Assembly (NCBI GenBank): GCA_020697715.1 | Contig: JAEHCO010000003.1 | Location: 184,020 to 248,019, forward strand | Direction of reading: 5' to 3' | Origin: Methanobacteriota archaeon | Lineage (GTDB): Archaea > Thermoplasmatota > Thermoplasmata > SG8-5 > JAGLSY01 | DNA: 64,000 nucleotides | Shown: positions 1 through 56,264 of the stretch, one piece after another | How positions within the stretch are numbered: the stretch's first letter is position 1 | Layout of the letters: every line of letters starts with the position of its first letter | The notes under the pieces: model-generated | What the model was told of the DNA's origin: nothing | The model's input: the letters and a program-made list of their open reading frames with translations, nothing else | Databases searched by the model: none | Made by a program: the position numbers and the translations under genes

Positions 1-63
1 TTTGGAATATATCCTGCAGCGGTGCTTAACATGGTGACAGCCTTTTCAGGAGGGATAATATGA
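1..63 (+). CDS. nuoM: 3' end of a complex I-like membrane subunit, probably NuoM/FpoM (partial)
   Basis: Frame 1 reads FGIYPAAVLNMVTAFSGGII*, the G(I/L)YP C-terminal motif of antiporter-like subunits; its stop overlaps the nuoN ATG (ATGA). Confidence 0.65.
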   Translation, partial: FGIYPAAVLNMVTAFSGGII

Positions 64-1526
64 ATTATCTGATACTTCTACCACAGATCATACTCGTGGC
101 AATAGCCATGTTGATACCAGCCATTGACCTTTACTTCAAGGACAAGACACGCATATTGCCATATCTGGCCGCCGGAGCCTTGGGAGTTTCCCTGTTAATA
201 TTGTCTATATTCACAGGCATCATCCCATTGGAGATATTCGATGTCACCATACCCACATCTTTGTTCGGTGGAATGCTGGTCGTCGATAGGTTCGCACTAT
301 TCCTTCAATTATTGTTCGGAATGGTCACCTTCTTCGTGGTCATGGCATCGTCATCCTACATCAAGCAATACGATCGCAACCAGGGTGAATATTACTCCCT
401 ACTTCTGATAGCGACCGTTGGTATGATGACCGTGGCAATGGCCAATGATCTGATAACTTTGTTCATCGGTCTCGAAGTTGCCAGTATATCATCCTATGCG
501 CTTACTGGTTTCAGAAAGAACAGTAAGAAGAGTGCGGAAGCCGCGATGAAATACTTCATAATCGGGGCTCTTTCCTCATCTATCGTTCTGTATGGTATAT
601 CCTTGTTCTACGGATTGACTGGCACAACGGACCTTGCCCAGTTTGGAACCCAATTGCAGAATATCGATCCAAGTCAGGATGGCCTGTTAGCGATGGCCAC
701 GATATTCCTTATAGCGGGATTCAGCTTCAAGGTGGCCGCCGCCCCATTCCATATGTGGGCTCCTGATGTTTACCAGGGCGCGCCAACGACAATAACCACC
801 TTCCTGGCCGCAGCGTCGAAGAAGATGGGATTTGCCGCTCTGTTCAAGGTCTTCCTTTTCGGTCTGATAGCTTTCAAGGCGGATTGGGCCATTGCCTTCG
901 GTGTCATGGCAGCACTTACCATGACAGTTGGTAATCTCGCGGCATTGAAGCAAGAGGACCTGAAGAGGATGCTCGCATACTCCAGCATTGCACAAGCCGG
1001 TTACATAATGATGGCTCTGGCAATTGCGACCCAGTACGCTCTGGGAGGTGCATTGTTCCACATACTCACACACGCCTTCATGAAGACTGGCGCTTTCATA
1101 ATCGTGGCAATGTTATCCGTCATGCTCATTGGCTCCAAGGTTGGAGACCTTCGCGGTCTGAGGATCAAATCACCAATTACAGCTTTCTGTATGGCGATAA
1201 TGATGTTGTCCTTGGCCGGAATTCCGCCTCTGGCAGGTTTCGCTTCCAAGTTCGTGCTGTTCTCAAGCGCGATAGATGCAGGCGGCTGGCTCATATGGTT
1301 GGCTGTAGTTGCTGTGATAAACAGCGCGATCTCCCTGTACTACTATGCGAGAGTTCTGAAGGAGATGTACGTTCTGCCAACTGATCATATACCGATCAGG
1401 ATGAAGGAACCACTGGCGATGCTGATACCTGTCGTATTGACAACAGCAGCTGTGATCATCGTCGGTCTGTATCCAGAGCCCTTCATAGATGCGGCAATGG
1501 ACGCGGCAAGAGCTTTGATCCCATGA
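60..1526 (+). CDS. nuoN: NADH:quinone oxidoreductase / Fpo-like subunit N
   Basis: Highly hydrophobic; motifs EAAMKYF, FKVAAAPFHMWAPDVYQGAP, KRMLAYSSI, SLAGIPPLAGF. Confidence 0.95.
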   Translation: MNYLILLPQIILVAIAMLIPAIDLYFKDKTRILPYLAAGALGVSLLILSIFTGIIPLEIFDVTIPTSLFGGMLVVDRFALFLQLLFGMVTFFVVMASSSYIKQYDRNQGEYYSLLLIATVGMMTVAMANDLITLFIGLEVASISSYALTGFRKNSKKSAEAAMKYFIIGALSSSIVLYGISLFYGLTGTTDLAQFGTQLQNIDPSQDGLLAMATIFLIAGFSFKVAAAPFHMWAPDVYQGAPTTITTFLAAASKKMGFAALFKVFLFGLIAFKADWAIAFGVMAALTMTVGNLAALKQEDLKRMLAYSSIAQAGYIMMALAIATQYALGGALFHILTHAFMKTGAFIIVAMLSVMLIGSKVGDLRGLRIKSPITAFCMAIMMLSLAGIPPLAGFASKFVLFSSAIDAGGWLIWLAVVAVINSAISLYYYARVLKEMYVLPTDHIPIRMKEPLAMLIPVVLTTAAVIIVGLYPEPFIDAAMDAARALIP

Positions 1527-38748: not shown

Positions 38749-38806
38749 TGTATAAAGAAAACGCCTGACATATTATCTACTATATAAGGATAATACTTAA
38801 CAAATT

Positions 38807-38821: not shown

Positions 38822-38876
38822 CGATGTCTCTAATTATCATCCAATCCAAAACAGATTGAAAAATGAGAGAATGATT

Positions 38877-38894
38877 CTCCGAGATATCTCGGAG
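38877..38894. promoter_or_regulatory. Perfect 18-bp palindrome upstream of the tetraheme cytochrome gene
   Basis: CTCCGAGATATCTCGGAG is its own reverse complement. Confidence 0.5.
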
Positions 38895-38914
38895 TTAGAA
38901 AAGAAGGTGAATAA

Positions 38915-39547: not shown

Positions 39548-39565
39548 GCCATGAAATAAAGAATG

Positions 39566-39620
39566 AAGAAGAAGGCTCATACCTTCTTCTTTCCCTTTCC
39601 TTTTTGATAATTTCTTTTTG
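39566..39620 (+). terminator. Hairpin + poly-T after the tetraheme cytochrome gene
   Basis: AAGAAGAAGG-ctcata-CCTTCTTCTT 10-bp stem followed by T-rich tract. Confidence 0.6.
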
Positions 39621-39659
39621 ATATCTTTTATATCGATGAAGGTCAATGGAAGAAATAAC

Positions 39660-40505: not shown

Positions 40506-40532
40506 TTGGTAAATGTTTAATAATTGAAAATT

Positions 40533-42530: not shown

Positions 42531-43990
42531 TAATGAAGATCGTCACACCCCTGAAAAGGAAGTGTATCATTGATGGTATGTTTCCCAGATACACATCATT
42601 GATCATATTCAGCCTGCTCTTATCTGTTGTAATAGCCCATCCAGCATCCGCAGAGGATCCGCCTTCTAATGCTACTTCGTTCAATCATCAGATGGCGCTC
42701 ATTCAGGGAGATTCTCCAGACTCCGCCGAGGTGATCGAGTCTGTTAACACCATGAGGATACGAGAAGGCGCCAGTTATGTCATACCTTGGGATGAGTCCA
42801 GGATCTACATACATGTACCTGAAGGAGGCGCTGTCAAGTACATTAATGATGGGAGCCATAAGTTCGCAGGTAACTGGGGGCCGTCTGATCTATATGACGA
42901 ATGGTACTTTTGGGAATTCGCTCCAGGTGATGATAGGAGAGTGTATGATTTTGTCAATTATAACTTGAGCATACTTGGCGAAGGCACCTATGATGACAAT
43001 ATGCTTGAGGTCAATGAGAATAATATCTCTTTGAAAATTGGCATTACCTATGGCGAGTACATTTCCAATATTTCAACCAGTGCTGACATGGTCAATATAT
43101 TATCAGCAAGGCCAATATTCCAGTCGAATTCAGATAATACCAGTATAATGCTGTCAAATGATAATGGAACAACATGGGTCACAGGAGATGTGAACAAGAC
43201 GATCAACTTCACATCAGATGGAACCGGTCTCATGTTCAAGGCGATATTATCTGATGGCCAGGTCGCATCACCCAGGATATCCAATATCACGCTCGAGTAC
43301 ACTTTCATGTCAATACGATCTACCATAGTGAATCTGGACTCAGAATATTCTATCCAAGGTGAAGAAGATCCTGTCACCATCGTGTTCAATAAGAAATTCC
43401 TCTATGATGTAGGTAAAATTGACATTCTGATGCATTATGATCTAAATCTCTCTGCTAACTCCAGCAATGTGGACTGGATGCCGCATTATGATATAAACGA
43501 TCAAATGATCGAGTTCTTCACCATATCCGGAAAGAACTTTCATATAGGTAGCGCGAATAAAAGCAATCTCATTACCATATCCGTGGGAGAGAATGTCACT
43601 GGGAATATTGGTATCAATCCTCATGATGATGGAGATGAGCCAAATTACTATCTATATTCCATAATCGCAGTTATCATGATTGTATCAATGACTGGACTAT
43701 ACCTGTCAAGAAAAGACCCCGGACAGGAAACCGAGGGAACAGATGTGGATGAAGACACATCTGATAACACGGAAGATGGTGAGTCCGAGGAGAAGGGTAT
43801 TCCTGAGGAAGCTGGAACCGTTGAAGGCGAGAATGAATTGATCGAACAGAAAGATAATATCCTCAAGGCCATAAAGAAGCTGGATGCTGACCTTGAAAGC
43901 GGTGAGATATCCAAAGATGTCCATGCGGAGCTCAAGGCCAATTACAAGAAAGAAGCTGTAAGGATAATGAAGGAACTGGATAATCAATGA
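42527..43990 (+). CDS. Hypothetical exported single-pass membrane protein; paralog of 21432..23132
   Basis: Shared H.(L/M)...QGD.P...E and PW..S..Y..VPE N-terminal block, and shared C-terminal LD..LE.GE(I/V)S...HA.LKA.YKK.A..IMK..D. Confidence 0.75.
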   Translation: MIMKIVTPLKRKCIIDGMFPRYTSLIIFSLLLSVVIAHPASAEDPPSNATSFNHQMALIQGDSPDSAEVIESVNTMRIREGASYVIPWDESRIYIHVPEGGAVKYINDGSHKFAGNWGPSDLYDEWYFWEFAPGDDRRVYDFVNYNLSILGEGTYDDNMLEVNENNISLKIGITYGEYISNISTSADMVNILSARPIFQSNSDNTSIMLSNDNGTTWVTGDVNKTINFTSDGTGLMFKAILSDGQVASPRISNITLEYTFMSIRSTIVNLDSEYSIQGEEDPVTIVFNKKFLYDVGKIDILMHYDLNLSANSSNVDWMPHYDINDQMIEFFTISGKNFHIGSANKSNLITISVGENVTGNIGINPHDDGDEPNYYLYSIIAVIMIVSMTGLYLSRKDPGQETEGTDVDEDTSDNTEDGESEEKGIPEEAGTVEGENELIEQKDNILKAIKKLDADLESGEISKDVHAELKANYKKEAVRIMKELDNQ

Positions 43991-43994
43991 TCAT

Positions 43995-46900
43995 CTAGAC
44001 GAAATCTGTCTTGTGGCACTCCCAACTTGGATAGGTTCCAGCAGTTCCAGAGGGATTCGAACCAGGATAGATGTAAAGCCTGGTGCCAGTATCCCATTGT
44101 GTGTAGTATCCATCGACGTGGGAGCCCATGCCATAGGCCTCCCAATAGGCATCACCGCCAGGAGTGTGGCATGTCCTGCATGGGGCCTCTCCATTCTCAT
44201 CGTAGGTCCCATCATTGTCAAAGTCCCACATATCGCCTTCTTCAGCATCCTGGTGTGCTCCAGTTGAGTGCGGGTATGAATCCGGGTGGTCAGTGCCAAT
44301 GGTCCCTTCATTGTACATATTGATGGACGCTCCATGGCAATTACCGCATCCCACATTGGGATTGTCCCAGTCGGGCGAGGCTGAGATATGGTCGGCGGCT
44401 GTCACTGCTCCAACACCTGCCACTGAATCACCATCATCATCAATGGCATTGCTGTGGCACCATGTGTTGGTGCATACTTTTGTTCCAGTGTTGTAGGTCG
44501 GGTTGGTGCCTGCCCAGTTGAACTGGTCAGATATCGACACAGGGTCCACTGTTGTATAGACTTGCGGTGTCATATCAACATGCAGGCTCGTGCCGTATGT
44601 TCCAAGACCCGCGGTAGGCGGATTATTGTAATGGCATTCACTGCAATCATAATCATACCAGGCAAAGTACACGTCCCACCAAGGTCCGCCATCATAATAT
44701 GTGTTGGCGTTCCCATCGGTCCATGTCGCACCAGCTGACACTGCAGGATATTGGAGCACCCAGTGTTGGGATGTCAACTGCTCATCTGTGTTTATAGTGA
44801 GCAGTGTCGTGCCTCCGTCCGTGCTTTCGATTATGATGGTCTCCTTGAATCCTGCGCGACCATCATAGACACCATCATGGTCAGCGTCCATATAGGCGAC
44901 CCTGTCAACAGCATTGGCATTTGACTGGATATGCTTCCAGTTGCCTGTGGCCCCCGTGCCGTCATACAATCTCTCACCTTGCTCCCAGTAGGTTCCGTCG
45001 CCGTTCATGTCAAAGGTTATGTCCTCCTGGTAATCGTAAGCATTATCATTGTCAGCATCCGCCCACCAGATATCATCCGTAGCAGAGAACCGGGTAATAT
45101 CTGCCAGTCCGGCTGTTATGACCTCATCAGGGGATCCCGTCCCATCCAGCCTGCCTGGATCAAGTAGATAGTTACCGTCATTATCACTTATGACGACTTC
45201 ATTAGCATCGTAAGCTCCATCCCCATCGTTATCTATGTAGGCCAGATTTCGTGTCGCACCCCACGCGCCTCCGAAATTACGCGTGTGTTTCAGATGACTG
45301 GCACTGCCTCCAGTGACAGTGCCGCCCAGCTCTCTGTCGGCTCCATCATTGTAATTCGGCATACCATGGCAGTCACCACAGGATGCGGGAGTGAGGGAGT
45401 TCCAGGCTGGTGTGTCGAAATAAATATCCCCTGCACCGCCAATGTCATAACCATTGCTATGGCAGTATACATTGGAGCAGACCCCTGCCCCATTGGTCTC
45501 GTAGGCATCTGGTGTTATCGTGCCCCCGAAGGAACCGATCCCATTAGCACTGCTGTCAAAGGCCACATCCACTTTTCCATCCACGTGAAGGATGCTTCCA
45601 TAGGTTGTGTCTGTCCAGCCCCCTGCAGAAGTCCCGGCCACATAATGACATTCTGAGCAATCGAAAGCGTAATTTGGATTCGCATTTGGGAGATTGTTCG
45701 ATGTATGCCTTGCATGGGCATAGGAGGTCATTGGGACATCGTGGCAATCCCCACAACCAACATTATCGCTCAACCAGTCTGGTGTGACACCTGCTGTGAA
45801 GCCACTGGCATTTCCATCGCTGTGGCAGTAGGTGTTGGCACACAGCGAATTGCTCGTGGCATTGTAGGTTGGCGCCAGAGCATTTGCGTATGTCGCGATA
45901 CCCACTGTTGAAGGAGCTGTTGTATTGAACCTCACCTGTAATACTCCATCTCCATGCTCGGCTGTTCCGTATGTGGTGTCATACCATCCATCCTGGTCTC
46001 CAGCCGAGTTGAAGTGGCATTGTGAACAATTGTAATCATAATCCGGTATGCTCCAATCCACCACGATATGCTTCACGTGCTGGTAGGAATCTGCACCGCA
46101 ATCTATTCCACCTGGGTGGCAGGCTCCGCCCCATTCCCTTCCGTCTGGATGGCAATTCGCATCATTGACATCACAAGTTCCGTATGAGGCGTCTCCTTCT
46201 AAAAGTGATCCAGTATTATCCGGGTATAGATTGGCCGTGGTGATATAAGCGTCAAAGTCACCAGTGAAATCGAAACTGATCTGTCCGTCAATGTGGGAGA
46301 AGGCATTGTCCCCTGGCAGATAGTAGACTCCAGCCCCAGTCTGTAGATGACATTCACTGCAGACCATGTTCGCTCTTGCAGGATTGATATGGCCAGTGTG
46401 GCTTCCGGTCTCTATCGGGGTGGTATCTGCCCATTCTCCACCGTGGCAGAGATCACAGGCCGCGGCAGTGGCATCTCCCCAGTTCGGTGTCCAGGTGGTG
46501 ATGGTGGCATCATCATCCGTCACCGCATCGTGGCAGTAGACATCACAGGTATTTCCTGAGACATAATTGACTTGTGTCCAACCCCATTCCGCACTTGTTT
46601 GAAGTCCGGGTGGGAATCCCGCACCTGCATTGTCCCACCAAGCGACGTCGAAATCACCATCTACGTGGCTGGCTGTCCCATATGTGCCGTCGGTAGACGG
46701 GCTGCCCGCAACGCTGTCCCAGTGGCATTCTCCGCAACGATATGCCTCGGTCTCCGCATGTTCTGGGTGATTATTGGTCAATGGCTTATTACCCACGGTA
46801 TTGTCACCGTGACAGCTACCGCCACCACCCGCACTGCAGTAACTGGTCGCGGCATTGTCCCAGATCGGTGTTGGATCCTGTGCATTGCCATCTACACCAT

Positions 46901-49900
46901 CGGTCGGGTCGTGGCAGAAGATATCTGAACAGGTGTCTGTTCCGGCATTCCAGACACCGGTGAAAGCGGCATTACCAAATTGTAATGCCAATCCATTTGC
47001 AGTATTATTGAAAACAACTTGAACCTGGCCATCAACATGCTGTGATGTGCCGTAGGTGGTATCAAAGTACCCGGAGCCAGCACCCGAACTTCCGGCCACA
47101 AAGTGACATTCTGAACAATCAAAGTTGTACGGAGCTCCATTGGTATGCATCGGATGGCTGGATGTTGTTGGTGCCATGTCGTGGCAGTCGCCACATGCCA
47201 CACCCGGAGTGTCCCATTCTGGTGAGGCCGCGTTCCATGAGAATCCTGCCACATATCCGTCGCTGTGGCAGTAGGTGTTGTCACATTCCATATTGGTTGT
47301 CGTGTTGTATGCTGGAGCCAGGTTATTGGCATATGTGGCTATTCCAACTGTTGAAGGTGCGGTTGTATTGAATCTGACCTGTAATGTTCCATCTCCATGC
47401 TCGGCTGTTCCATATGTTGTATCGAACCAGCCGTCCTGTGCGCCTGCTGAATTGAAATGGCACTGTGAACAATTGTAATCATAATCTGGGATGTTCCAGT
47501 CAGCAGCTATGTGTTTGTTATGGCTATTGGAATCCGCGCCACAGGTTATTCCACTTGGGTGGCACTCCGCGGTCGGGTTATGCCCCTCTGTGGGATCAAA
47601 CGGATAATTGTGCTTGTAGTGGCAGCCAGCACTTGTACAGTCATCACGCCCGCTCACGACCCATGATGTGGAAGTTCCGTGGGTGGGTGGTGTTTCTCTG
47701 TTATCGATAGCCGCTCCGTCAACAACACCATTGTCAACAAGGTGACATCCTCCAACACCCATGTCCTGGTCACCACAGCCCTGTATACTGCTTCCTCCAA
47801 AGAGCTGGGCACCATCATCAGTATCATCTGGTTTCAGCAAATGATCTGGGTGGCAATCCACACATTCCACTGTTCCATCTGCATCGATAAGGGTGCTGGT
47901 GGTATGCTTCGCACCATCATTGGTGAAGCTTGTGAAGATATCCTTCATCCACGGTGTGCTGGCATCCTGATAAGGAACTCTTGAATCCAGATCTGAATAA
48001 TGGCATACGACATCACAAAAGGCATTGTCCACATTGGTATCAGCCGCAGCTGCGTATGTGGTCCAGTCTATATCAACGACATGAGGTATATCATGCGGAT
48101 ACCATGGCTCCGCAGCTGTATCGTGGCAATCCTCGCAATGTGTGTAATCGTAATTGGATACTGATTCATTAAGATGGTTAATGTATTTGCCGCTTCCAAA
48201 AGGCACGGGGTTGGTTCCAGTATCATCATGGCAATCCGCACAGCTATTGACAACTCTTGGATAAACCTGCTCGAAGGCAGTTGTGGAATCATTCCACACA
48301 TTGACCACATTGGAAGGTTCTGTCCAAACCTGTATTGTTAGACCGGAACCCGCGGCCGGGGAGAAATCATGCCACATGATCCGAATATCATCTATTTCCA
48401 CAGTGTCCTGTTGTGCCGCATCCGCATTATTGGTATCTATGACATTCAAGTATATCGGGCCAGACATAACGGGTATGGCAGATGAATAAGTAGTGACGAC
48501 ATTCGTATTCACCGTGATAACAGGCGTGTATGGACCCGCCTGGACAGTTGAATATCCTATCTGGAAATCATCATCCGAGCCAGCAGCCAGGAATCTCGCA
48601 TCCACTATCAGAGTGAGATCATCCGCCCCAGCGGGTATGGACTCCGTTCGCCAGATATGTTCGAGCGAGTAAGTGCCTCCAACTGCCTCGATCCACTGTA
48701 TCCTTATCCTCTCTATGATGACATCATCCGCTTGGCTATCAACAGCATTATCATCCACCACTCTGAGATATAGCACTCCTGAAGTAGCTCCCGGGAAGTT
48801 CCAGTTGTATGATGTCAGTGTATCGGAATTAATGGTTATCGTGGTCGGATTATAGGTCACATCATCCGTGGACCATTCTATCGTAAAGGTATCATCGGAG
48901 CCAGTATTGTGCCTCCCCTCTACATACAAGGTGAGGGTCGTCGCTCCCGCAGGTATATTGTCCGTGCGCCAACGATGCTCCAATGAGGCCGTGACAGGAT
49001 TATTGACAAGATGCTGTATTCTGACAATATCAATGATAACACTATCCGCCTGGCTGTCTGCTAAACTATTGTCTACCACACTGAGGTAAAGCACACCTGA
49101 TGTGGCTGCCGGGAAATTCCAGGAATAGGTGGTCATGACATTGGTATTGATCGTGATTGTAGTTGGATTGTATGTCACATCATCAGTTGACCAGTATACT
49201 GTGAATGTGTCATCGGATCCAACCGGATTGTACTGGGCATCCACGAATAGGGTGAGAGTGTCCGCTCCCGCCGCTATATTGTCCGTACGCCAACGATGCT
49301 CCAGGCTGGCAACAACTGGAATGCTCTCGTACCATTCAAGTCTGATAGTATCTATCTGGCAGGTGGTGAGTAATGCATCTCCTGTATTGTCATCGATCAC
49401 CTGAATGTAAAGTACACCTGTTTCACCGAGTGGGAAGGTGTAAGGTGCGTAGGTGGTCATCGCGGCATTGTTGATATTGATGCCAGTATCTGTGTAGGTG
49501 ACATCGTCATTGGACCAGAATACACTGAAGACATCATCTCCAGGGGCGGTTGATAATGCCCTCACATATAGGTTGAGGGCAGTGTAGCCAGACGGGATGC
49601 TGTCCGTTGTCCATTTGTGCTCGAGTGAAGGCGCTCCTCCAGCAGTGGTCACGATTATCTTGATGTAGTCGAATGATACTGCATCTCCAGGTCCCCCGTC
49701 ATTAGAGGTGAATTCTACGTCCAAGGTGGTAATTTGAGCAAGTGTGGTCACACCGTTAGCGAATAGATCGTATGTAGCGGTGAGGTCTACCTGTCCATTT
49801 GTTGGAGTGATGCCAGTAGATGCTAATGCACCTGCATCAAGAGCCCATCTTATAGGATTATTTCCATTATATCCTGCTTCGACAGAATACTGAACTTCAA

Positions 49901-51767
49901 GGGTCACACCGGTAACTGTGCCGCTCATTCCTCCTGTGTTGAACCCATCCATGAAAAGGAGTCTGCCCTTGTCGACAGTGTACCATCCATCTCCTGTAGT
50001 TACAGCACCTGGCGAGGCTCCTGTCGTGTCATCTGCTTGTATGTCTGCTAGTAAGTCATTTGTGGTATCTGTTCCTCCGACTACATTGGCAAATGCATCT
50101 CCACCAACTCCGCTAGCTGCGACTTCCTGTATGGTCTCGATATCACCAGCCGCTGGCACACCTTCATCGATGTTCTGCCAGTAAGGAGGGCCTGCTGTTC
50201 CACCCACAGTTCCTTCAACCGCGATATCGGATGCCACGGTGTAATTGGCCCAAACATCACCGCCAGTTGTTGCTTCTGTGATGGTCTGCGTCAAACCATC
50301 AGATGGGTTGATCTCATCAATATTGGTGTATGTGTTTGTAACAGTTCCATGATTGGCTGCATTTGGCTGATCCAGGTCAACTGTATAATTGGAATAAACA
50401 TCTCCGCCAGAGGTGATCTCGGTTATTGTCTCAATAAGCCCGTCAGCGGGATCTATCTCATCTATGTTCAGATATCCATTGGCAGCAGGTACGACAGTTC
50501 CATGAACAGCCACATTTGGCTGGTCCAAGTCCACTGTATAATTTGCATAATTGTTCACTCCCGCCGCGACTTCCTGAATGGTCTGGACTCCAGCTCCATG
50601 TGTATTTGCCTCAGTTCCCGCAACAGTTCCGTGATTGGCAGCATCCACTGGATCCAGGTCCGTGGTATAATTGGCCCATGTATTGACCCCTCCGCCACTT
50701 CCAACCGGATCAAGCCAGTTATATCCGCTGTGGCATCCCCAACAGATGTCCCCTTCTTTCTGATGTGACATTCCAGTTGCTGTTGTGATCTCATTGAATA
50801 TCGCGGTCATATTAGAGGAAACATGCGTGTCACCGCGATCATGGCAACCATTCAACCTGTTCGCACAGGTGATGTTCTTGGCTGCATGAAATTCAGTATC
50901 CAGAACCTCCTGGCTATCAATATGACAGGAGTCACATCCTGTTCCCATAAGGTGAGTGAGATTGCTTGGTTGGGTGGCCGTGTGGTGACCGCCACTATCG
51001 CCCAATCTGGCTGCCACTACATCATTGTGGCATCCACTTGCACCATCACCGCAATTCACATCATTTCCACCAATATATGTATGAGATTCTCCGACCTTGG
51101 TCCATGTATATGTATTCTCATGTGTTGAGAAACTGGTCTCCACATTCGTGATCGCATAGCTCACATCGATAGTGAAATTATAATAATCTGGACGTTCATA
51201 AGTTACATTGACATCGAAGCCAGTATGACAAACTATGCAGGCTTCATTGGGTCCTTTATTGTAGATGCTCGCTCCTGCATTGGAGAACATATCTTGGTGT
51301 GCTTCTGTACTATAACTTATATTGGTCGCCACGGTATCATGACAACTAATACAACTAGGCAATGCCGCAACGTGCTGGTCATCATACTCATTAGAAACAT
51401 CCTGATGACAATCTGGACAGGTCATTCCCTCATGTGGCTCAGTACCAGGGGTACCTAACATGTCTGTGAATTCCAGGCCGACATCATCATGGCAATCGAG
51501 ACAAGCCTTTCCAGTGTTCCAATCATGTTGTGAGGAGAACAATGATACCGTGATAGCTCCAATAGAAATAGCGGCTATAGCCAGTATCATTATCAAAAGC
51601 AAGGCCTTTTTTGATATCACTATGGATGGGGTAGGAGTGAACGCCTTCGCTGTAGTGGCACTAAAAGATGAATCCGCACCCGGGTCGCCCCCGACCTCCG
51701 GTTTCATATCTGGCTGACTATCAATGTCAGGTCCATTTTCTATTTCCATTGCCATGTTGATCCGCAA
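43995..51767 (-). CDS. Giant extracellular multiheme cytochrome c (~2590 aa; 22 CxxCH + 13 CX3-9CH motifs)
   Basis: Signal/TM then TVS-LFSSQHDW; two tetraheme modules; heme-free beta-sandwich region; Geobacter-type CxxxxCH/CxxCH repeats; DxDxDG loops; true start may be ATG 51755 or 51749. Confidence 0.92.
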   Translation of the reverse strand: MRINMAMEIENGPDIDSQPDMKPEVGGDPGADSSFSATTAKAFTPTPSIVISKKALLLIMILAIAAISIGAITVSLFSSQHDWNTGKACLDCHDDVGLEFTDMLGTPGTEPHEGMTCPDCHQDVSNEYDDQHVAALPSCISCHDTVATNISYSTEAHQDMFSNAGASIYNKGPNEACIVCHTGFDVNVTYERPDYYNFTIDVSYAITNVETSFSTHENTYTWTKVGESHTYIGGNDVNCGDGASGCHNDVVAARLGDSGGHHTATQPSNLTHLMGTGCDSCHIDSQEVLDTEFHAAKNITCANRLNGCHDRGDTHVSSNMTAIFNEITTATGMSHQKEGDICWGCHSGYNWLDPVGSGGGVNTWANYTTDLDPVDAANHGTVAGTEANTHGAGVQTIQEVAAGVNNYANYTVDLDQPNVAVHGTVVPAANGYLNIDEIDPADGLIETITEITSGGDVYSNYTVDLDQPNAANHGTVTNTYTNIDEINPSDGLTQTITEATTGGDVWANYTVASDIAVEGTVGGTAGPPYWQNIDEGVPAAGDIETIQEVAASGVGGDAFANVVGGTDTTNDLLADIQADDTTGASPGAVTTGDGWYTVDKGRLLFMDGFNTGGMSGTVTGVTLEVQYSVEAGYNGNNPIRWALDAGALASTGITPTNGQVDLTATYDLFANGVTTLAQITTLDVEFTSNDGGPGDAVSFDYIKIIVTTAGGAPSLEHKWTTDSIPSGYTALNLYVRALSTAPGDDVFSVFWSNDDVTYTDTGININNAAMTTYAPYTFPLGETGVLYIQVIDDNTGDALLTTCQIDTIRLEWYESIPVVASLEHRWRTDNIAAGADTLTLFVDAQYNPVGSDDTFTVYWSTDDVTYNPTTITINTNVMTTYSWNFPAATSGVLYLSVVDNSLADSQADSVIIDIVRIQHLVNNPVTASLEHRWRTDNIPAGATTLTLYVEGRHNTGSDDTFTIEWSTDDVTYNPTTITINSDTLTSYNWNFPGATSGVLYLRVVDDNAVDSQADDVIIERIRIQWIEAVGGTYSLEHIWRTESIPAGADDLTLIVDARFLAAGSDDDFQIGYSTVQAGPYTPVITVNTNVVTTYSSAIPVMSGPIYLNVIDTNNADAAQQDTVEIDDIRIMWHDFSPAAGSGLTIQVWTEPSNVVNVWNDSTTAFEQVYPRVVNSCADCHDDTGTNPVPFGSGKYINHLNESVSNYDYTHCEDCHDTAAEPWYPHDIPHVVDIDWTTYAAAADTNVDNAFCDVVCHYSDLDSRVPYQDASTPWMKDIFTSFTNDGAKHTTSTLIDADGTVECVDCHPDHLLKPDDTDDGAQLFGGSSIQGCGDQDMGVGGCHLVDNGVVDGAAIDNRETPPTHGTSTSWVVSGRDDCTSAGCHYKHNYPFDPTEGHNPTAECHPSGITCGADSNSHNKHIAADWNIPDYDYNCSQCHFNSAGAQDGWFDTTYGTAEHGDGTLQVRFNTTAPSTVGIATYANNLAPAYNTTTNMECDNTYCHSDGYVAGFSWNAASPEWDTPGVACGDCHDMAPTTSSHPMHTNGAPYNFDCSECHFVAGSSGAGSGYFDTTYGTSQHVDGQVQVVFNNTANGLALQFGNAAFTGVWNAGTDTCSDIFCHDPTDGVDGNAQDPTPIWDNAATSYCSAGGGGSCHGDNTVGNKPLTNNHPEHAETEAYRCGECHWDSVAGSPSTDGTYGTASHVDGDFDVAWWDNAGAGFPPGLQTSAEWGWTQVNYVSGNTCDVYCHDAVTDDDATITTWTPNWGDATAAACDLCHGGEWADTTPIETGSHTGHINPARANMVCSECHLQTGAGVYYLPGDNAFSHIDGQISFDFTGDFDAYITTANLYPDNTGSLLEGDASYGTCDVNDANCHPDGREWGGACHPGGIDCGADSYQHVKHIVVDWSIPDYDYNCSQCHFNSAGDQDGWYDTTYGTAEHGDGVLQVRFNTTAPSTVGIATYANALAPTYNATSNSLCANTYCHSDGNASGFTAGVTPDWLSDNVGCGDCHDVPMTSYAHARHTSNNLPNANPNYAFDCSECHYVAGTSAGGWTDTTYGSILHVDGKVDVAFDSSANGIGSFGGTITPDAYETNGAGVCSNVYCHSNGYDIGGAGDIYFDTPAWNSLTPASCGDCHGMPNYNDGADRELGGTVTGGSASHLKHTRNFGGAWGATRNLAYIDNDGDGAYDANEVVISDNDGNYLLDPGRLDGTGSPDEVITAGLADITRFSATDDIWWADADNDNAYDYQEDITFDMNGDGTYWEQGERLYDGTGATGNWKHIQSNANAVDRVAYMDADHDGVYDGRAGFKETIIIESTDGGTTLLTINTDEQLTSQHWVLQYPAVSAGATWTDGNANTYYDGGPWWDVYFAWYDYDCSECHYNNPPTAGLGTYGTSLHVDMTPQVYTTVDPVSISDQFNWAGTNPTYNTGTKVCTNTWCHSNAIDDDGDSVAGVGAVTAADHISASPDWDNPNVGCGNCHGASINMYNEGTIGTDHPDSYPHSTGAHQDAEEGDMWDFDNDGTYDENGEAPCRTCHTPGGDAYWEAYGMGSHVDGYYTQWDTGTRLYIYPGSNPSGTAGTYPSWECHKTDFV
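45810..47564 (-). repeat. Internal duplication in the giant cytochrome (about 47250-47564 vs 45810-46121)
   Basis: Both copies encode CHPxGIxCGADS..H.KH...IPDYDYNCSQCHFNSAG.QDGW.DTTYGTAEHGDG.LQVRFNTTAPSTVGIATYAN.LAP.YN..C.NTYCHSDG, with clear DNA similarity. Confidence 0.9.
48361..49630 (-). repeat. Four ~320-bp SLEHxWxT coding repeats
   Basis: SLEHKW, SLEHRW, SLEHRW, SLEHIW units, each about 105 aa and ending I(D/E).(I/V)R(I/L). Confidence 0.9.
50105..50690 (-). repeat. Four ~130-155-bp (W/Y)xNYT...GTV...TIxE coding repeats
   Basis: WANYTTDLD, YANYTVDLD, YSNYTVDLD, WANYTVASD units, each ending TIQE or TITE. Confidence 0.88.
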
Positions 51768-51937
51768 GCTTTGGTTGGTTAAACTATATATTTATTATAG
51801 TTATGTTAAACAGTGTATGTAACCTATTTAATATAATAGTTACGGGCTTATTTTCAATAAGCCAGATTATGCGCCATAATACACAACCGAAAGGCATATA
51901 AAAGTCAGTGATATGTCCTCTTATTGGAGAAAGTCTC

Positions 51938-52369
51938 ATGCAAATTGAAGAGTACACATTTCCGGATGACCTGTATTTCCACAAGGAACACTACTGGGCA
52001 AGAGTAGAAGGCGACGTTGTAGTTATTGGCGTTAGCGATTTCGCTCAGAAGCTGGCAGGAACAATTAAAAGAGTGGTCACACTGGAAGAAGACGATGAGA
52101 TCGTCCGCGACAAGCCAATTGGTACATTGTCTAGCGGGAAATGGACAGGAAAATTATACGCACCTATCAGTGGTGAGATAGTTGAGGTAAATGAGGATAT
52201 CGAGGATGAGCCAAATCTCATCAATGAGGATCCTTATGGAGAAGGCTGGGTCATAAAAGTGGAACCTAGTGACCTCGATGCAGACCTCGCCACCCTCAAG
52301 AAGCCAGGCCCAGAGTTCGAGGCCTGGATGAAGAAAGAGATCGAAGAAAAGAAAGCTTTGGTAAAGTAA
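51938..52369 (+). CDS. gcvH: Second GcvH-like lipoyl carrier (LbpA-like SGKW motif)
   Basis: YFHKEHYW, IGVSDFAQKLAG, TLSSGKWTGKLYAPISGEIVEVN, INEDPYGEGW; ATG 51938. Confidence 0.9.
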   Translation: MQIEEYTFPDDLYFHKEHYWARVEGDVVVIGVSDFAQKLAGTIKRVVTLEEDDEIVRDKPIGTLSSGKWTGKLYAPISGEIVEVNEDIEDEPNLINEDPYGEGWVIKVEPSDLDADLATLKKPGPEFEAWMKKEIEEKKALVK

Positions 52370-52432
52370 AATTGACCAAAGGCGATCTGTCGGGATCTTT
52401 GCGTTGTTAGTATTGTCATATAGTGTAGCTTG

Positions 52433-52463
52433 AAGCTTGCGTATTTGGGCGCAAGCTTTTTTT
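52433..52463 (+). terminator. Hairpin + T7 terminator after gcvH
   Basis: AAGCTTGCG-tatttggg-CGCAAGCTT followed by TTTTT. Confidence 0.65.
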
Positions 52464-52511
52464 CAATTTATGGATTATTGGGTATGGTAGGTGTTTAGGG
52501 TTTTAGAAAGA

Positions 52512-52628
52512 TTGACACCCCCGCCATTCTGACGGGGTTCTAGGGATCCATTTTTAATTGTCACTCGAATTCTCATCGAATCCAGTACCCCGCCCTTATG
52601 AATATTTAATGAATGATCCAGACGGGGC
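52512..52628 (-). repeat. Two related CCCCGTC...GGCGGGG hairpins (possible IS200/IS605-end or REP-like remnant)
   Basis: Minus strand GAACCCCGTCAGAATGGCGGGGGTGTCAA and GCCCCGTC-(25 nt)-GGGCGGGGT. Confidence 0.35.
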
Positions 52629-52667
52629 ATGCCGTTGAGAAACGCTTTGCAGGCTTCGCGCAAAGCT

Positions 52668-53750
52668 CTACTTCTTAAAAATGGGCTTGCAGTTGACAGC
52701 CCGATTCATTCTGTCTGGTCCCAATAATCTCATCGACATCTCCAGGGTCCAGTTCCTCTTGAAGGCCTTGTCCGCCATCCTCTTTGTATCCAGAGCATTA
52801 TCCAGCTCTGGGCCGACATTCATCCTCCACTCTTCCTCGTATTTTTGGAGTGGTGTGTTGTCCTTGAAATTCTGAGCTATGACATTTCCAGCTATCCTGC
52901 CGCATATCATGGATATCGGTATACCGCCTCCATTTGTCGCCATCACTTGTCCAGCCGCATCCCCGACTATCATTACATTATCTTTGACAGTTTGCGGGAT
53001 GGGCCCTGATATTGGAACAAATCCCGCACTCAATTGCTCGATCTTTCCCAGGCCTCGGACCTTTAGGAATTTATCCAACATATTCCTCAATGACACATTC
53101 CCTGTCTTCTGAATGCCAAGGCCGACATTCGCCCCGTCGCCCTTTGGGATCACCCAGGCATAGCCGCCAGGTGCGATCGTGCCGAAGAACATCTCCACAA
53201 TAGGCTCGAAATCCCCGGATACCTGTCCGAGCATGCAGGGGCACAGGACATGCTCGACCTGCATTCCTGCGGATTCTGCAACTTTGGATTTGAAACCATC
53301 GGCTCCGACAATGACCTTCGCTTTTATGCTTCCTTTATCGGTCTCGACCATGTTTCCATCTAAGGACAGGAATTTTGTCCCTGTCCTTAGGTCGGCTCCC
53401 GCATCTGTCGCCTTGCTGGCCAGATGTTTGTCGAAGTATCTTCTATCTACTGTGAATCCTTCAAAATCAATGTCATATTTCCGGTTCTTAGGTGATACGA
53501 ACCGGATCTTCTCCGTCTTCATCTTGATAAGCCCGTCATCGATATTGAAAAGCTCTGATTGATCCTTCACCCTGGGTATGATCCTTTTCATCTCATTGGT
53601 GGATGGTATGAACTCCCCGCATTGAACTGGCTCACCAACTGCTTTTCTCTGATCGATGATAATTACATTTAAGCCAGATCTGGCTGCATAATATGCTGTT
53701 GAACTTCCTGCAGGCCCGGCTCCGATAACTGCGACATCGAATTCTTCCAT
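52668..53750 (-). CDS. Geranylgeranyl reductase family protein (DGGGPL reductase-like)
   Basis: IGAGPAG, GEPVQCGE, APGGYAWVIPKG, VGDAAGQV..NGGGI. Confidence 0.9.
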   Translation of the reverse strand: MEEFDVAVIGAGPAGSSTAYYAARSGLNVIIIDQRKAVGEPVQCGEFIPSTNEMKRIIPRVKDQSELFNIDDGLIKMKTEKIRFVSPKNRKYDIDFEGFTVDRRYFDKHLASKATDAGADLRTGTKFLSLDGNMVETDKGSIKAKVIVGADGFKSKVAESAGMQVEHVLCPCMLGQVSGDFEPIVEMFFGTIAPGGYAWVIPKGDGANVGLGIQKTGNVSLRNMLDKFLKVRGLGKIEQLSAGFVPISGPIPQTVKDNVMIVGDAAGQVMATNGGGIPISMICGRIAGNVIAQNFKDNTPLQKYEEEWRMNVGPELDNALDTKRMADKAFKRNWTLEMSMRLLGPDRMNRAVNCKPIFKK

Positions 53751-53789
53751 TTTGGATCACTCTGTTCTTGTTTACAATTTTCACGATCA

Positions 53790-54761
53790 TCAATGATTTC
53801 TGTCCACTGCGAAATCGGACAGTGCCAGTAGCTTGTCCCATTCTTCAGTTCTGGTATTTATCTGCTCCAATGCGTCGCTCGCCTTGTTCCCGTAAACCAT
53901 GGAGAGATCATGGGCATAATCAATAGAGCCAACATCCTTCATGATCCTGATGGCCTCCATGATATCATCATTGGAATTCTCATTATTTGTTATGACCTTC
54001 TTCATATGGTCATTGTCCGAACCTTTGGAATTATTAAGTGCATGAATTGAAAGGATGGTCATCTTTCCCTCGTTCAGATCATTCCCTATGACCTTCCCGG
54101 TATTGCTCTTCGAGCCTACCACATCGAGGATATCATCCATTATCTGGAAACCGATCCCCATATTGAGCCCGTAATCGCTCAATAGCTCATTGTCCTTCTC
54201 TGAAGCACCAGCCATTAACCCTCCGGCTTTCGAGCTGGCTGAGATGGGCCCAGCGGTCTTCTGCTCGATGATATTGAGATAATCCTGCTCTGAAAGCAGA
54301 ACATTCTGAATGTTCTGCGATTGTATGATCTCACCAATGGCCTGTGATATACAAGCTCCCGTGATGACGTCCCTTATTTCTTTATTATATTCGCTGAGCA
54401 GTTCGAAGGCCTTGACAAAAAGATAATCCCCAGTTAGAAGAGCCGCGCTGGTCCCGAATTTGATATGGGCTGTTGGTATGCCTCTTCTCACTACGCTTCT
54501 GTCATTGATATCATCATGTATCAATGTCCCAGTGTGTATGAGCTCCATGGATGCTGCTAATGGAACCGCGCTTTTGATATCCGTGCCGTTCAGGGCCTTG
54601 TAGGCGGACAGCATGACCGCTGGTCTGATCCTCTTGCCACCTGAGTCTATCACATGGTGGGATACCTTCTCGATAATGGCAATACCACAGTTGATATTGT
54701 CGTTAATGATATCATCTACGAGTTTCATTTCCTCGGATGAGTATAACTCAACGTCCATCAT
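53790..54761 (-). CDS. trans-polyprenyl diphosphate synthase (likely long-chain)
   Basis: GGKRIRP, HTGTLIHDDIND..RRG, KT, FQIMDDILD. Confidence 0.9.
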   Translation of the reverse strand: MMDVELYSSEEMKLVDDIINDNINCGIAIIEKVSHHVIDSGGKRIRPAVMLSAYKALNGTDIKSAVPLAASMELIHTGTLIHDDINDRSVVRRGIPTAHIKFGTSAALLTGDYLFVKAFELLSEYNKEIRDVITGACISQAIGEIIQSQNIQNVLLSEQDYLNIIEQKTAGPISASSKAGGLMAGASEKDNELLSDYGLNMGIGFQIMDDILDVVGSKSNTGKVIGNDLNEGKMTILSIHALNNSKGSDNDHMKKVITNNENSNDDIMEAIRIMKDVGSIDYAHDLSMVYGNKASDALEQINTRTEEWDKLLALSDFAVDRNH

Positions 54762-54921
54762 AGCTTTCGAGTGCAGATTATTGATATTCTATATAAAGAG
54801 TTCTCACAATAGATATCATAACTATATATCATTATGATCTGACAAATTAGGATATGGAGCCAAATTTAGGATCAAATACTTGAGCTTGATATGTGAATGA
54901 GATTTCAGGGTCTGATAGTTC

Positions 54922-55158
54922 TCACATATCAAGAGTGGCCTTGTGGATCACTTTCTGGGCCTTATCTTCATCGAAGAACATCTTGATGGCTTGCAGAACA
55001 TGCTTTTGTAGAACTATGCCCATCATCTTCTCATCAATATCGTCCTCATTAAATCCAAGGTCCTTAAGTCCTTTTTTCAAGAACATACCAGCCATGTCTT
55101 GATGAACACCATTTGATATCAGGGAGGCCTTTACATTTTCATAAATAGCATTTCCCAT
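54922..55158 (-). CDS. Small hypothetical protein downstream of nuoD
   Basis: 78 aa, preceded by GAGGTGG SD, same strand as nuoABCD. Confidence 0.6.
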   Translation of the reverse strand: MGNAIYENVKASLISNGVHQDMAGMFLKKGLKDLGFNEDDIDEKMMGIVLQKHVLQAIKMFFDEDKAQKVIHKATLDM

Positions 55159-55175
55159 TTACCCCACCTCTCCAT

Positions 55176-56264
55176 CTACCTGTCAGTTTCACCAATGCAA
55201 ACATCGATACTTCCCATTATCGAGGGAACATCCGCTATCCTATTTCCGATCAGTATGGTTGGTGAGGCAGATATATTAATGAAGGCCGGACTTTTGATAT
55301 CCACTCTGTACGGCTTATCTGTTCCATTACCTATCATGTGTATGGATGAGTCACCTCTTGGATCTGCTGTCCTGGTGAATACCTCAGAGCCTTTTGGAGC
55401 CTTCTTTGGAACATTCTGAGCCATTATCGGGCCAGCAGGCATATCCTTCAGAGCCTGCTTGATTATGCTCATGCTCTCCCTCATCTCGTTCATTCTAACG
55501 CGATATCTGGAATAGCAATCGCCCCTTTTCTCGACACAGATGGCGAAATCAAGTTTATCATAAACGAGATATGGATCATGCCTTCTCAGATCATATGGAA
55601 CTCCACTGGCACGTAGATTGGGGCCAGTGACTCCCAGATCAATGGCGTCATCGGGTCTCAATATACCGACATCCATCGTCCTCATGAGGATCATGTCATT
55701 GTCATCCATCATGCCCTCGTATTCTTGTAATTTCTGCTCAAGAACAGCTATCTGCTTGAGTGTCTCTTCCTCGAATCTGTCTGGGGTGTCATTCCTCACC
55801 CCACCGATCCTGGTGTAATCGTACATGAGCCTTCCGCCAGATATCATCTGCATGAGATCCATGAACAGCTCTCTTTCTCTCATCGGATAAAGGAACATTG
55901 TCAATATCCCAAGGTCGGCGGCATATGCAGCCAGCCATAGAAGGTGATTGATGATCCTCTGTATCTCCAATGTGATAACCCTGATATATTGCGCCCTCTC
56001 CGGAGCCACAACACCCATGAGGTCCTCTACTGTGAAAACATAAAGCGAGCTCCAGGAATGTGCTGAACCATAGCAAAGCCTGTCTGCCAGAGGTATGCTC
56101 TGGGGAAAGGTACGATTCTCCATGATCTTCTCGATCCCACGGTGGAGGTATCCCACTTCAGGAATTGCATCTGTTATGGTCTCACCATCGATCTTGACCT
56201 TCAATGTCCATAATCCATGGGTCATCGGATGTTGCGGACCCATGTTCACCCACATCTCCGCCAT
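55176..56264 (-). CDS. nuoD: Complex I-like subunit D (NuoD/FpoD)
   Basis: NMGPQHPMTHG, GYLHRGIEK, DRLCY, GPNLRASGV, DVCIGETDR; no NiFe CxxC pairs. Confidence 0.93.
   Translation of the reverse strand: MAEMWVNMGPQHPMTHGLWTLKVKIDGETITDAIPEVGYLHRGIEKIMENRTFPQSIPLADRLCYGSAHSWSSLYVFTVEDLMGVVAPERAQYIRVITLEIQRIINHLLWLAAYAADLGILTMFLYPMRERELFMDLMQMISGGRLMYDYTRIGGVRNDTPDRFEEETLKQIAVLEQKLQEYEGMMDDNDMILMRTMDVGILRPDDAIDLGVTGPNLRASGVPYDLRRHDPYLVYDKLDFAICVEKRGDCYSRYRVRMNEMRESMSIIKQALKDMPAGPIMAQNVPKKAPKGSEVFTRTADPRGDSSIHMIGNGTDKPYRVDIKSPAFINISASPTILIGNRIADVPSIMGSIDVCIGETDR

Follow-up and report, generated by a model that had tools for sequence, protein, structure and literature searches.

An open reading frame in the window (the whole 64,000-nucleotide stretch of archaeal DNA analysed here) encodes a giant cytochrome, and the 785-residue insert carried by this protein has a nested topology. 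We consider it probable that the insert is a recursive insertion, A1(A2(A3(A4 [x] B1)B2)B3)B4, forming an arm on one loop of the extracellular cytochrome with domain x held at the tip. Four homologous jelly-roll host domains resembling carbohydrate-binding modules (CBMs) would each be split at a tight turn into an A part of ~45 residues and a B part of ~105 residues, and each host would carry the next within its A/B turn. The chain would run out through the four A parts, fold x and come back through the four B parts, and because it runs out and back in this way, both ends of the 785-residue insert would come together in A1+B4, the outermost domain.

The cytochrome and its insert

The open reading frame specifies 2590 residues (P0001 in the homologue comparisons). 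A motif scan for C-x(2-4)-CH identified 30 haem motifs, all of them outside the insert, and two Pfam families were matched above their cut-offs, Cytochrome_C7 (PF14522; 49.4 bits, cut-off 24.8) and GSu_C4xC__C2xCH (PF09698; 46.4 bits, cut-off 21.7). Motifs and profiles assign the predicted protein to the multihaem c-type cytochromes of the PF09698/PF14522 type, with covalent haem attachment predicted. A hydrophobic stretch near the N terminus (approximately residues 53-77) was read by eye from the translation without a predictor, and the translation predicts an extracellular cytochrome anchored at its N terminus. The gene neighbourhood includes a small c7-type cytochrome, UbiE, a polyprenyl synthase and complex-I-type subunits.

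The insert was delimited by BLASTP against homologues that do not have it. Residues 46-353 of P0001 aligned with residues 5-317 of P0163, and residues 1139-1317 with residues 318-502, so that the two flanks of the insert are contiguous in P0163. P0164 displayed the same pattern. Because the flanks are directly contiguous in two insert-less homologues, this sequence comparison identifies the arm as an insertion interrupting a cytochrome that is otherwise continuous. The haem motifs flanking the insert site are 47 residues apart in P0163; in the 2590-residue protein, the whole arm would hang from one loop between CWGCH (residue 342) and CADCH (residue 1176). No Pfam family was matched within the insert at E ≤ 1. 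The features are as follows.

43995..51767, minus strand: multihaem c-type cytochrome gene, host of the insert, 2590 aa (ORF)
50730..50744, minus strand: CWGCH, residues 342-346, last haem motif ahead of the insert (motif scan)
48354..50708, minus strand: whole insert, residues 354-1138, 785 aa (BLASTP against homologues without the insert)
50556..50684, minus strand: A1, residues 362-404, N-terminal part, predicted to form the outermost host domain with B4 (repeat alignment)
50403..50555, minus strand: A2, residues 405-455, N-terminal part, predicted to form layer 2 with B3 (repeat alignment)
50259..50402, minus strand: A3, residues 456-503, N-terminal part, predicted to form layer 3 with B2 (alignment and model)
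50100..50258, minus strand: A4, residues 504-556, N-terminal part, predicted to form the innermost host domain with B1 (alignment and models)
49638..50099, minus strand: x, residues 557-710 (154 aa), guest or tip domain, beta-sandwich (alignment and models)
49317..49637, minus strand: B1, residues 711-817, C-terminal part, predicted to complete the innermost host domain (alignment and models)
48996..49316, minus strand: B2, residues 818-924, predicted C-terminal part of layer 3 (alignment and model)
48678..48995, minus strand: B3, residues 925-1030, predicted C-terminal part of layer 2 (repeat alignment)
48348..48677, minus strand: B4, residues 1031-1140, C-terminal part, predicted to complete the outermost host domain (repeat alignment)
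48228..48242, minus strand: CADCH, residues 1176-1180, first haem motif past the insert (motif scan)

Residues 362-1140 read A1-A2-A3-A4-x-B1-B2-B3-B4. A preliminary description of this DNA had proposed this order for positions 48361-50690 of the window (residues 360-1136), had taken the insert to be haem-free and had noted that the A segments most alike are the middle two, and likewise for the B segments. The order was confirmed by motif positions and segment alignments, and the 30 of 30 haem motifs lying outside agree with the second point. NYT is found at residues 366, 409, 460 and 508, GTV at residues 380, 423, 474 and 519, and LEH at residues 715, 822, 929 and 1035. The segments were compared by pairwise local alignment with BLOSUM62. 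A2 and A3 share 34 of 46 residues (18-25 of 38-46 for the remaining five A pairs) and B2 and B3 share 73 of 100 (42-51 of 96-105 for the remaining five B pairs), as had been noted for the middle segments. Scores were 65-172 among A pairs and 152-390 among B pairs. Aligned with each A and B segment, the core scored 24-40, which we took as the internal chance level. At the DNA level A2/A3 (67% identity) and B2/B3 (68%) have diverged equally. Residues fixed in all 10 aligned B units are L, E, H and W at the start of the unit and D36, Y64, G74, Y77 and D82.

Pairing of the A and B segments

Intact domains in which A runs straight into B, which the preliminary description had mentioned, are real; 19 contiguous A+B units were found in 11 other proteins, with B starting -1 to 5 residues after the end of A. 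Among the 40 proteins having both A and B, 30 can be written as balanced nested ("parenthesis") words, in which guest and host numbers appear to be balanced. The word of P0003, for example, is AAAA g BBB A g BB / A g B / AAA g BB A g BB. Six of the ten unbalanced proteins look truncated, as they start or end at most 31 residues from a unit (at most 71 for P0005). Two others (P0009 and P0010) hinge on a weak A that one of the searches did detect, and two (P0044 and P0073) fall into neither group. Gaps between neighbouring segments were also examined. All 28 A-to-A gaps were within -2 to 1 residues, and 33 of 44 B-to-B gaps within -4 to 2 residues. As for the 61 A-to-B gaps, 19 were -1 to 5 residues, 41 were 143-282 residues, and one was 56 residues. 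Taking into account that A-to-B gaps are either short or 143-282 residues long and that A-to-A gaps are near zero, a domain-sized guest occurs only at the A-to-B turn.

Comparison of homologous cytochromes established that the number of layers at one site varies from 0 to 4. There are no layers in P0163 and P0164, one in P0161, two in P0006 and P0017, three in P0004 and four in P0001 and P0002, and the flanks of the insert site are constant throughout this series. CWGCH is kept in P0161, P0006, P0004 and P0017, with the first A starting 18-21 residues later, and CADCH lies 39-40 residues past the last B in P0001, P0161, P0006 and P0004. In the one-layer P0161, the only A is most similar to A1 (0.58) and the only B is most similar to B4 (0.70), and the three-layer P0004 has one A1/B4-type layer and two A4/B1-type layers. 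In the homologous cytochromes an A1-type segment is always accompanied by a B4-type segment, and an A4-type by a B1-type. We also carried out a mirror-tree analysis on 31 A/B pairs, a set that includes the close relatives P0003, P0005 and P0008 and whose pairs are not independent. The nested order gave r = 0.401, a value reached in 0 of 2000 within-module permutations, and the parallel order gave r = 0.076. The similarity pattern within P0004 alone gave r = 0.99 (nested) and -0.87 (parallel).

MAFFT alignments of whole or trimmed proteins with the 791-residue insert misregistered the repeats, and pieces with one layer and two layers were folded instead. AlphaFold2 models of A4-x-B1 (first model) and A3-A4-x-B1-B2 (second model) had pLDDT values of 85.0 and 84.6, respectively. 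Confidence was above 90 in x, 81-97 in B1 and 66-94 in B2; values were 42-71 (first model) and 61-82 (second model) in A4 and 55-66 in A3 (second model). The structural alignment output gives the first and last aligned residues only, and spans rather than strand contacts are therefore compared. In the best 50 VIA-align rows for the second model, 32 single-domain rows spanned A4..B1 (model residues 47-53..355-363), 11 single-domain CBM rows spanned A3..B2 (1-4..464-469), and 7 were two-domain rows with rmsd above 15 Å; none spanned A3..B1 or A4..B2. CBM rows for the first model spanned model residues 1..310. Nested spans in 43 of 50 rows, with none crossed, argue for an insertion depth of at least two in the modelled piece. 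A depth of four is suggested by the A4/B4 word together with the co-occurrence of types. Comparative evidence likewise points to the pairing of layers 1 and 2 (A1/B4 and A2/B3), the A2/B3 pairing being suggested by the nested parse and type co-occurrence. A complex prediction of A1-A2 with B3-B4, run without controls, scored 0.01 (mark 0.32) and was given no weight in either direction.

Taken by itself, the linear order would also permit A and B to be independent tandem domains, their equal counts being coincidental or due to another constraint, and the low pLDDT of the A segments in both models would agree with this. Such tandem domains are hardly credible beside the 19 contiguous A+B units, the balanced architectures of 30 of 40 proteins, the confinement of domain-sized gaps to A-to-B turns, and single CBM chains that align across A..B over 105-139 residues, mostly longer than a lone B. 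We regard it as very improbable that the halves pair in parallel or in another order (A1-B1 ... A4-B4), or between molecules by domain swapping. Repeat similarity within the 2590-residue cytochrome fails to separate the pairing orders, fitting the parallel one (r = 0.97) as well as the nested one (r = 0.94), and pairing in trans is compatible with the sequence and with the monomer models. On the other hand, an A1-type and a B4-type unit are retained together in the one-layer orthologue, A4-type and B1-type units each occur twice in the three-layer one, the mirror-tree correlation is only 0.08 when the pairs are taken in parallel but 0.40 when they are nested, and 0 of 50 structural rows are crossed. 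The zero-length A-A and B-B linkers would in addition leave little slack for a parallel arrangement.

Nested insertion, with A4 joined to the first B and A1 to the last, had been put forward in the preliminary description, and it is supported by the contiguous units, the words, the orthologues and the models. The predicted structures agree with it for the inner two layers, with spans A4..B1 and A3..B2 and none crossed. The suggestion in that description that the ends of the arm stay together follows because A1 and B4 would form one domain, and it fits the contiguity of the flanks in the two insert-less homologues.

Host fold and tip domain

With the second model, VIA-align matched 2zew_A (Z 11.0, 127/146 residues aligned, rmsd 3.1) and 1wcu_A (Z 10.9, 121/149 residues aligned); over both models the Z value of 1wcu_A was 10.9-11.1. 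Single CBM chains of 129-166 residues aligned over 105-139 residues across A..B spans with rmsd values of about 3 Å (2.6-4.8 Å), and in nearly all rows the aligned length exceeded the 107 residues of a lone B. The models suggest that the discontinuous host domain forms one fold, a CBM-like beta-jelly roll, across both A4..B1 and A3..B2; the predicted match covers most of a solved CBM domain, its A part being of low confidence in the models. SBHM entries were not among the best 50 structural rows listed, which consisted of CBM-type and other jelly rolls.

A search of the PDB with the B profile gave no match at E ≤ 1, and one with the insert gave only two antibody chains (E 0.03-0.04). Pfam searches on the B pairs gave one F5_F8_type_C match (E 0.042) in 1 of 19 members and otherwise nothing relevant. 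Only the contiguous relative P0046 touches DUF6727 (7.6e-10) and F5_F8_type_C (7.3e-7), and these searches did not place the host in a curated CBM or Pfam family. As a lead from the Protein Atlas, the A+B model resembles accessory domains adjoining glycoside hydrolases.

The core x was considered as a fifth A+B copy and rejected (hhalign probability 1.3%, E 0.039, comparing an x profile from 87 sequences with a contiguous A+B profile from 19 units). Matches of the x-HMM on B units came from an iterated profile and were not trusted. The structural match of x was 2yc2_A (Z 8.9, model residues 52..204), and no Pfam match was found for this domain. We conclude that x is a separate beta-sandwich guest family and not an A+B copy. 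The retrieved proteins contain 87 x domains, single or in tandem. At the equivalent position, P0003, P0005, P0018 and P0049 have an LTD, P0007 a Cleaved_Adhesin domain and P0011 an InhA-like MAM domain. A Protein Atlas lead indicated a resemblance of x to unnamed clusters of ~160 residues, mostly labelled viral. Scans of the DNA collection gave four loci in genome contigs and one in metagenome contigs.

Function and relation to known systems

The arm may serve to keep x, its tip domain, at a distance from the haem core, with the number of layers setting the reach. The tips of the relatives, LTD, cleaved-adhesin or MAM-like, are all binding-type modules, and by analogy x would be a putative binding domain whose probable target is a surface, a partner cell or a component of the envelope. 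More tentatively, the A+B host could be a length-adjustable, 'telescopic' carrier, whose layers are gained or lost as an A half together with a distant B half, tuning the distance between the binding tip and the haem chain of an extracellular electron conduit. Such stepwise gain and loss would require a mutational mechanism by which two gene segments lying apart are duplicated together.

It is also conceivable, if rather unlikely, that the nested topology is right and the layers themselves do the work, as a multivalent anchor to glycans or the envelope, or else form a compact flexible cluster, without setting any reach. The host domains do match carbohydrate-binding modules with Z values of 10-11, the strictly conserved B residues could be a site rather than a scaffold, and the pTM of 0.55-0.66 for both models leaves the placement of domains relative to each other open. 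Nevertheless, tip guests have been swapped among binding-type domains with the hosts unchanged, which suggests that the hosts are carriers, and sugar-binding families have no sequence match to them. Each layer junction would consist of two chain crossings with 0-1 linker residues, which disfavours a floppy chain.

If the arm is nested as proposed, the finding bears on several questions. The series of 0, 1, 2, 3 and 4 layers makes testable how domains fold that can be closed only after their interior has been made, and how the two distant halves of a layer come to be jointly duplicated. With regard to extracellular electron transfer, an arm of ~800 residues whose binding-type tip is exchangeable can be accommodated in a giant archaeal cytochrome while the haem-bearing flanks remain unchanged. 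For annotation, two unnamed domain families are defined, the A+B host and the x guest, neither of which is covered by current Pfam.

Large cytochromes with an S-layer-type domain are known from ANME archaea. The giant multihaem cytochromes of the archaeal and Geobacter type (CxxxxCH...CxxCH, PF09698) resemble the flanks of the insert with their 30 haem motifs, but differ from the present protein by its 785-residue haem-free nested arm between two haem motifs. Our literature search, mainly of titles and abstracts, revealed no description of the A/B family, and none of a cytochrome with a nested arm. In relation to CBMs with a beta-jelly roll (CBM16, 2zew_A; CBM29, 1wcu_A and 1gwk_A), the modelled A+B domain is alike in fold (Z 10.3-11.1, 119-127 of 141-149 residues aligned, rmsd 2.6-3.1 Å), whereas its identity to them is 7-13%, it has no Pfam or PDB sequence match, and it is split by insertion; the resemblance to sugar-binding modules would be one of fold alone.

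Recursive insertion is known from SI3 of cyanobacterial RNA polymerase beta' (RpoC2), and a report on Prochlorococcus rpoC2 describes a six-level recursive A1-B1-C-B2-A2 architecture (PMC13114784, which cites Alvarez-Carreno 2024 and Shen 2023). SI3 and the arm are alike in that small homologous beta domains sit one within another over several levels, a single host can accept more than one insertion, and the complete block is attached to a large protein through one of its loops. SI3 consists of sandwich-barrel hybrid motif domains and belongs to RNA polymerase, whereas the hosts described here are CBM-like jelly rolls by their best structural matches and occur in an extracellular multihaem cytochrome and in haem-free archaeal surface proteins. 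Compared with what is given there for SI3, the cytochrome arm has a distinct, exchangeable tip domain, and among its close homologues the layers at one site number from 0 to 4. Recursive domain self-insertion appears to be rare, with SI3 as one well-studied case and the jelly-roll hosts as a second fold that does so; what would be new here is the fold and the protein setting.

A haem-free arm inserted in a multihaem cytochrome

The protein under study (P0001) is encoded by a single long open reading frame and is, judging from its sequence, a multihaem c-type cytochrome. It contains 30 C-x(2-4)-CH motifs, the Pfam families Cytochrome_C7 and GSu_C4xC__C2xCH were both detected above cut-off, and a hydrophobic stretch can be read near the N-terminus of the translation. 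The stretch initially described corresponds to residues 360-1136. A motif scan found no haem motif between CWGCH (342) and CADCH (1176), and no Pfam match at E <= 1 was present in this region. Repeat segmentation gave the following layout, in which A and B are the short N-terminal and longer C-terminal parts of a split host domain, one A and its partner B forming a layer.

Window 43995..51767, minus strand: multihaem c-type cytochrome, 2590 aa
Residues 362-404, minus strand: A1
Residues 405-455, minus strand: A2
Residues 456-503, minus strand: A3
Residues 504-556, minus strand: A4
Residues 557-710, minus strand: core domain x, 154 aa, between A4 and B1
Residues 711-817, minus strand: B1
Residues 818-924, minus strand: B2
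Residues 925-1030, minus strand: B3
Residues 1031-1140, minus strand: B4

The arrangement of four A, a core and four B, and the particular likeness of the middle pairs, had been proposed in a preliminary description, and segmentation and pairwise alignment bear out both. A2 and A3 share 34 of 46 residues and B2 and B3 73 of 100. The remaining A pairs and B pairs are also clearly related (pair scores 65-172 and 152-390, respectively), while x aligned with any A or B at scores of just 24-40.

We then compared homologous cytochromes around this site. In P0161, P0006, P0004 and P0001, 18-21 residues separate CWGCH from the first A, and 39-40 residues separate the last B from the next CxxCH, independent of the number of layers. 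In P0163, which lacks the insert, BLAST aligned residues 46-353 of P0001 with 5-317 and residues 1139-1317 with 318-502. The two flanks of the insert are thus directly contiguous, and CWGCH and the following haem motif lie 47 residues apart; P0164 displays the same pattern. Homologous cytochromes therefore carry 0, 1, 2, 3 or 4 layers at one site. These sequence comparisons showed that the arm is a loop insertion into a continuous cytochrome, and they support the earlier view that it leaves both flanks in place. A further long stretch without haem motifs in P0163 (500-1651) harbours two weak B-like units (residues 1330-1644; E 0.0024 and 1e-5), so that a similar module may be present at a different site of this homologue.

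Other features of the gene were also noted. The G+C content is 0.52 in the haem-rich part (window 44001-48000) and 0.42-0.46 in the flanking 10 kb, which may simply reflect a composition rich in Gly, Ala, Cys and His. A second haem-free stretch of ~245 residues lies between CGDCH 2130 and CSECH 2375 (window 44658-45320, residues ~2150-2370); its translation has many Asp/Gly/Asn runs of the DNDGDG type that look like calcium-binding repeats. The haem-rich part further contains a large internal duplication (window 47268-47585 and 45825-46142, residues ~1395-1500 and 1876-1981), recognized in the translation and, in BLAST comparisons with homologues, from segments that resemble each other. The two stretches, each of more than 100 residues, are near-identical from CHPxGIxCGADS to YCHSDG.

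A split host domain and its guests

A word-indexed search identified 15 long proteins related to the insert, and an exhaustive search with the insert gave 189 proteins at E <= 0.001, 150 of them listed; many of these database proteins are fragments. HMMs were built for A, B and x, and 160 proteins were scanned. Intact domains in which A runs into B, as mentioned in the preliminary description, were indeed found (19 units in 11 proteins, with -1 to 5 residues from A end to B start).

Forty proteins carried both A and B. When A was read as an opening and B as a closing bracket, with g for any guest domain in the position of x, the words of 30 of the 40 were balanced, including AAA g BBB (P0004), AA g BB (P0006, P0017, P0018) and tandem A g B A g B. 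The word of P0003 was AAAA g BBB A g BB / A g B / AAA g BB A g BB. Among the ten unbalanced proteins, six (P0005, P0008, P0035, P0026, P0030 and P0116) look truncated, as a start or stop adjoins a unit. In P0009 and P0010 the balance hinges on one weak A picked up by the HMM scan, and we have no explanation for P0044 and P0073. Gaps from A to A were within -2..1 residues in 28 of 28 cases and those from B to B within -4..2 in 33 of 44, five others (42-53) being as long as an A that the scan could have missed. Gaps from A to B (61 in all) were sharply bimodal, with 19 at -1..5, 41 at 143-282 and one at 56. Domain-sized guests are thus accommodated only at the turn from A to B.

The guest is LTD in P0003, P0005, P0018 and P0049, Cleaved_Adhesin in P0007 and an InhA-like MAM domain in P0011; x occupies the position in P0001, in P0007 and in a paralogue from the same genome. 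In many proteins of the HMM scan x also occurs singly or in tandem. A+B is thus the host domain for several kinds of guest, of which x is one. Concerning x itself (window 49638-50099), the closest Atlas clusters by language-model features (scores 0.94-0.96) are unnamed proteins of ~160 aa, mostly labelled tailed-phage, which hints at a possible relationship of x to domains of the phage receptor-binding type.

In a sample of 401 genomes from the phylum, the B profile matched 19, counting the genome studied here, and according to record titles loci with the module occur in Thermoplasmata, Methanomassiliicoccales and 'Methanobacteriota' MAGs. The majority of carriers are haem-free surface proteins; the module accompanied three or more CxxCH in only five of the proteins scanned for gaps, P0161 being added later. 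Three further open frames are present on contig C11 of the same genome: a haem-free 1646-aa frame (A x B), a haem-free 2919-aa frame (A g B A g BB) and an 837-aa frame in which x is the only such domain and a single CxxCH occurs. As read here, the word of the 2919-aa frame does not balance, suggesting that one A may be too divergent for detection.

Nested order of the layers

Nested pairing (A1-B4, A2-B3, A3-B2, A4-B1), as put forward in the preliminary description, was weighed against parallel pairing (A1-B1 to A4-B4). P0001 alone cannot separate the two, as its similarities are symmetric (r = 0.94 for nested and 0.97 for parallel order). Within P0004, the inner pair of A is the most alike, as is the inner pair of B, and r was 0.99 for nested and -0.87 for parallel pairing. 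Over 31 A/B pairs from eight proteins, several of them close kin, A-A and B-B similarities correlated with r = 0.401 (nested) and 0.076 (parallel), and none of 2000 within-module permutations of this set reached 0.401.

The clearest evidence came from the layer series of the homologous cytochromes, retrieved with the C-terminal flank of the insert. The single layer of P0161 is nearest to A1 (0.58) and B4 (0.70). P0017 and P0006 have two layers, an outer one of A1/B4 type enclosing one of A2-3/B2-3 type; in P0006 the assignment of the outer B is ambiguous (B3 0.55, B4 0.53). In the three layers of P0004, A1/B4 is outermost, followed by two with A4-like A and B1-like B. A1 thus travels with B4 and A4 with B1, which fits nesting and not parallel pairing.

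The inner two layers were also modelled, while pairing of the outer layers comes from sequence comparison. Model 1 comprised A4-x-B1 (504-817; 39-row alignment, mean pLDDT 85.0, pTM 0.66) and model 2 A3-A4-x-B1-B2 (456-924; 44-row alignment inspected row by row, pLDDT 84.6, pTM 0.55). Confidence was high in x and B (pLDDT 81-98) and low in A (42-82). The models were compared with 48,161 PDB representatives using VIA-align, which reports the first and last aligned residues. In model 1, single CBM-type jelly rolls covered 1..310 (1wcu_A, for example, with Z 11.1, 121/149 aligned and rmsd 2.6), and x was matched separately (52..204; 2yc2_A, Z 8.9). Among the best 50 rows for model 2, 32 were single domains spanning 47-53..355-363 (A4..B1), 11 were single domains spanning 1-4..464-469 (A3..B2) and seven were chains of two domains (rmsd above 15 A); none spanned A3..B1 or A4..B2. 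Aligned lengths (105-139) exceeded the 107 residues of one B in nearly all rows listed. Foldseek matches included tandem or double jelly rolls, such as CBM22 tandems, reelin repeats and viral double jelly rolls. Mirror similarity, co-occurrence of layer types and the structural spans all favour nested order, and the topology is A1(A2(A3(A4 x B1)B2)B3)B4.

In 10 of 10 aligned B units (window 48348-49637 and relatives), L, E, H and W occur at the start of B, directly after the insertion point, and D36, Y64, G74, Y77 and D82 are likewise conserved. These residues could bind a metal or ligand, or could act as a clasp in the folding of the split domain.

Possible role of the arm and related systems

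From one layer to the next the chain would cross twice, with linkers of 0-1 residues, which should make the block stiffer than a beads-on-a-string chain. The tip is exchangeable and in every case a module of the binding type. The arm therefore probably serves to present x, be it to a surface, a partner or a component of the envelope, with a reach that would be set by the number of layers. The neighbourhood, with a small c7-type cytochrome, UbiE, polyprenyl synthase, geranylgeranyl reductase and complex-I-type subunits, fits an electron-transfer role of the whole cytochrome. On one side (window 36250-43990) are genes for a UbiE-type methyltransferase, a PKD-domain protein, an S24-like peptidase, a TPR protein and the 210-aa c7-type cytochrome (window 38915-39547). 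On the other (window 51908-57429) are GcvH, geranylgeranyl reductase, polyprenyl synthase and the complex-I 49K/30K/20K subunits. By gene content, the setting appears respiratory and quinone-related.

At the DNA level, A2/A3 (67% identity) and B2/B3 (68%) have diverged equally, as if both parts of a single layer had been duplicated at roughly the same time. We know of no simple mutation that copies both separated halves of one layer.

Our literature search found no description of the A+B family or of such an arm in a cytochrome. To our knowledge, a series of 0-4 layers among close homologues has not been described. Nested insertion itself is known: the SI3 block of the cyanobacterial RNA polymerase beta' subunit is described as built of homologous domains inserted recursively to six levels (PMC13114784). 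The arm differs from SI3 in its host protein and its exchangeable tip and, judging from the best structural matches, appears to differ in its fold, and it is in these that its novelty lies.
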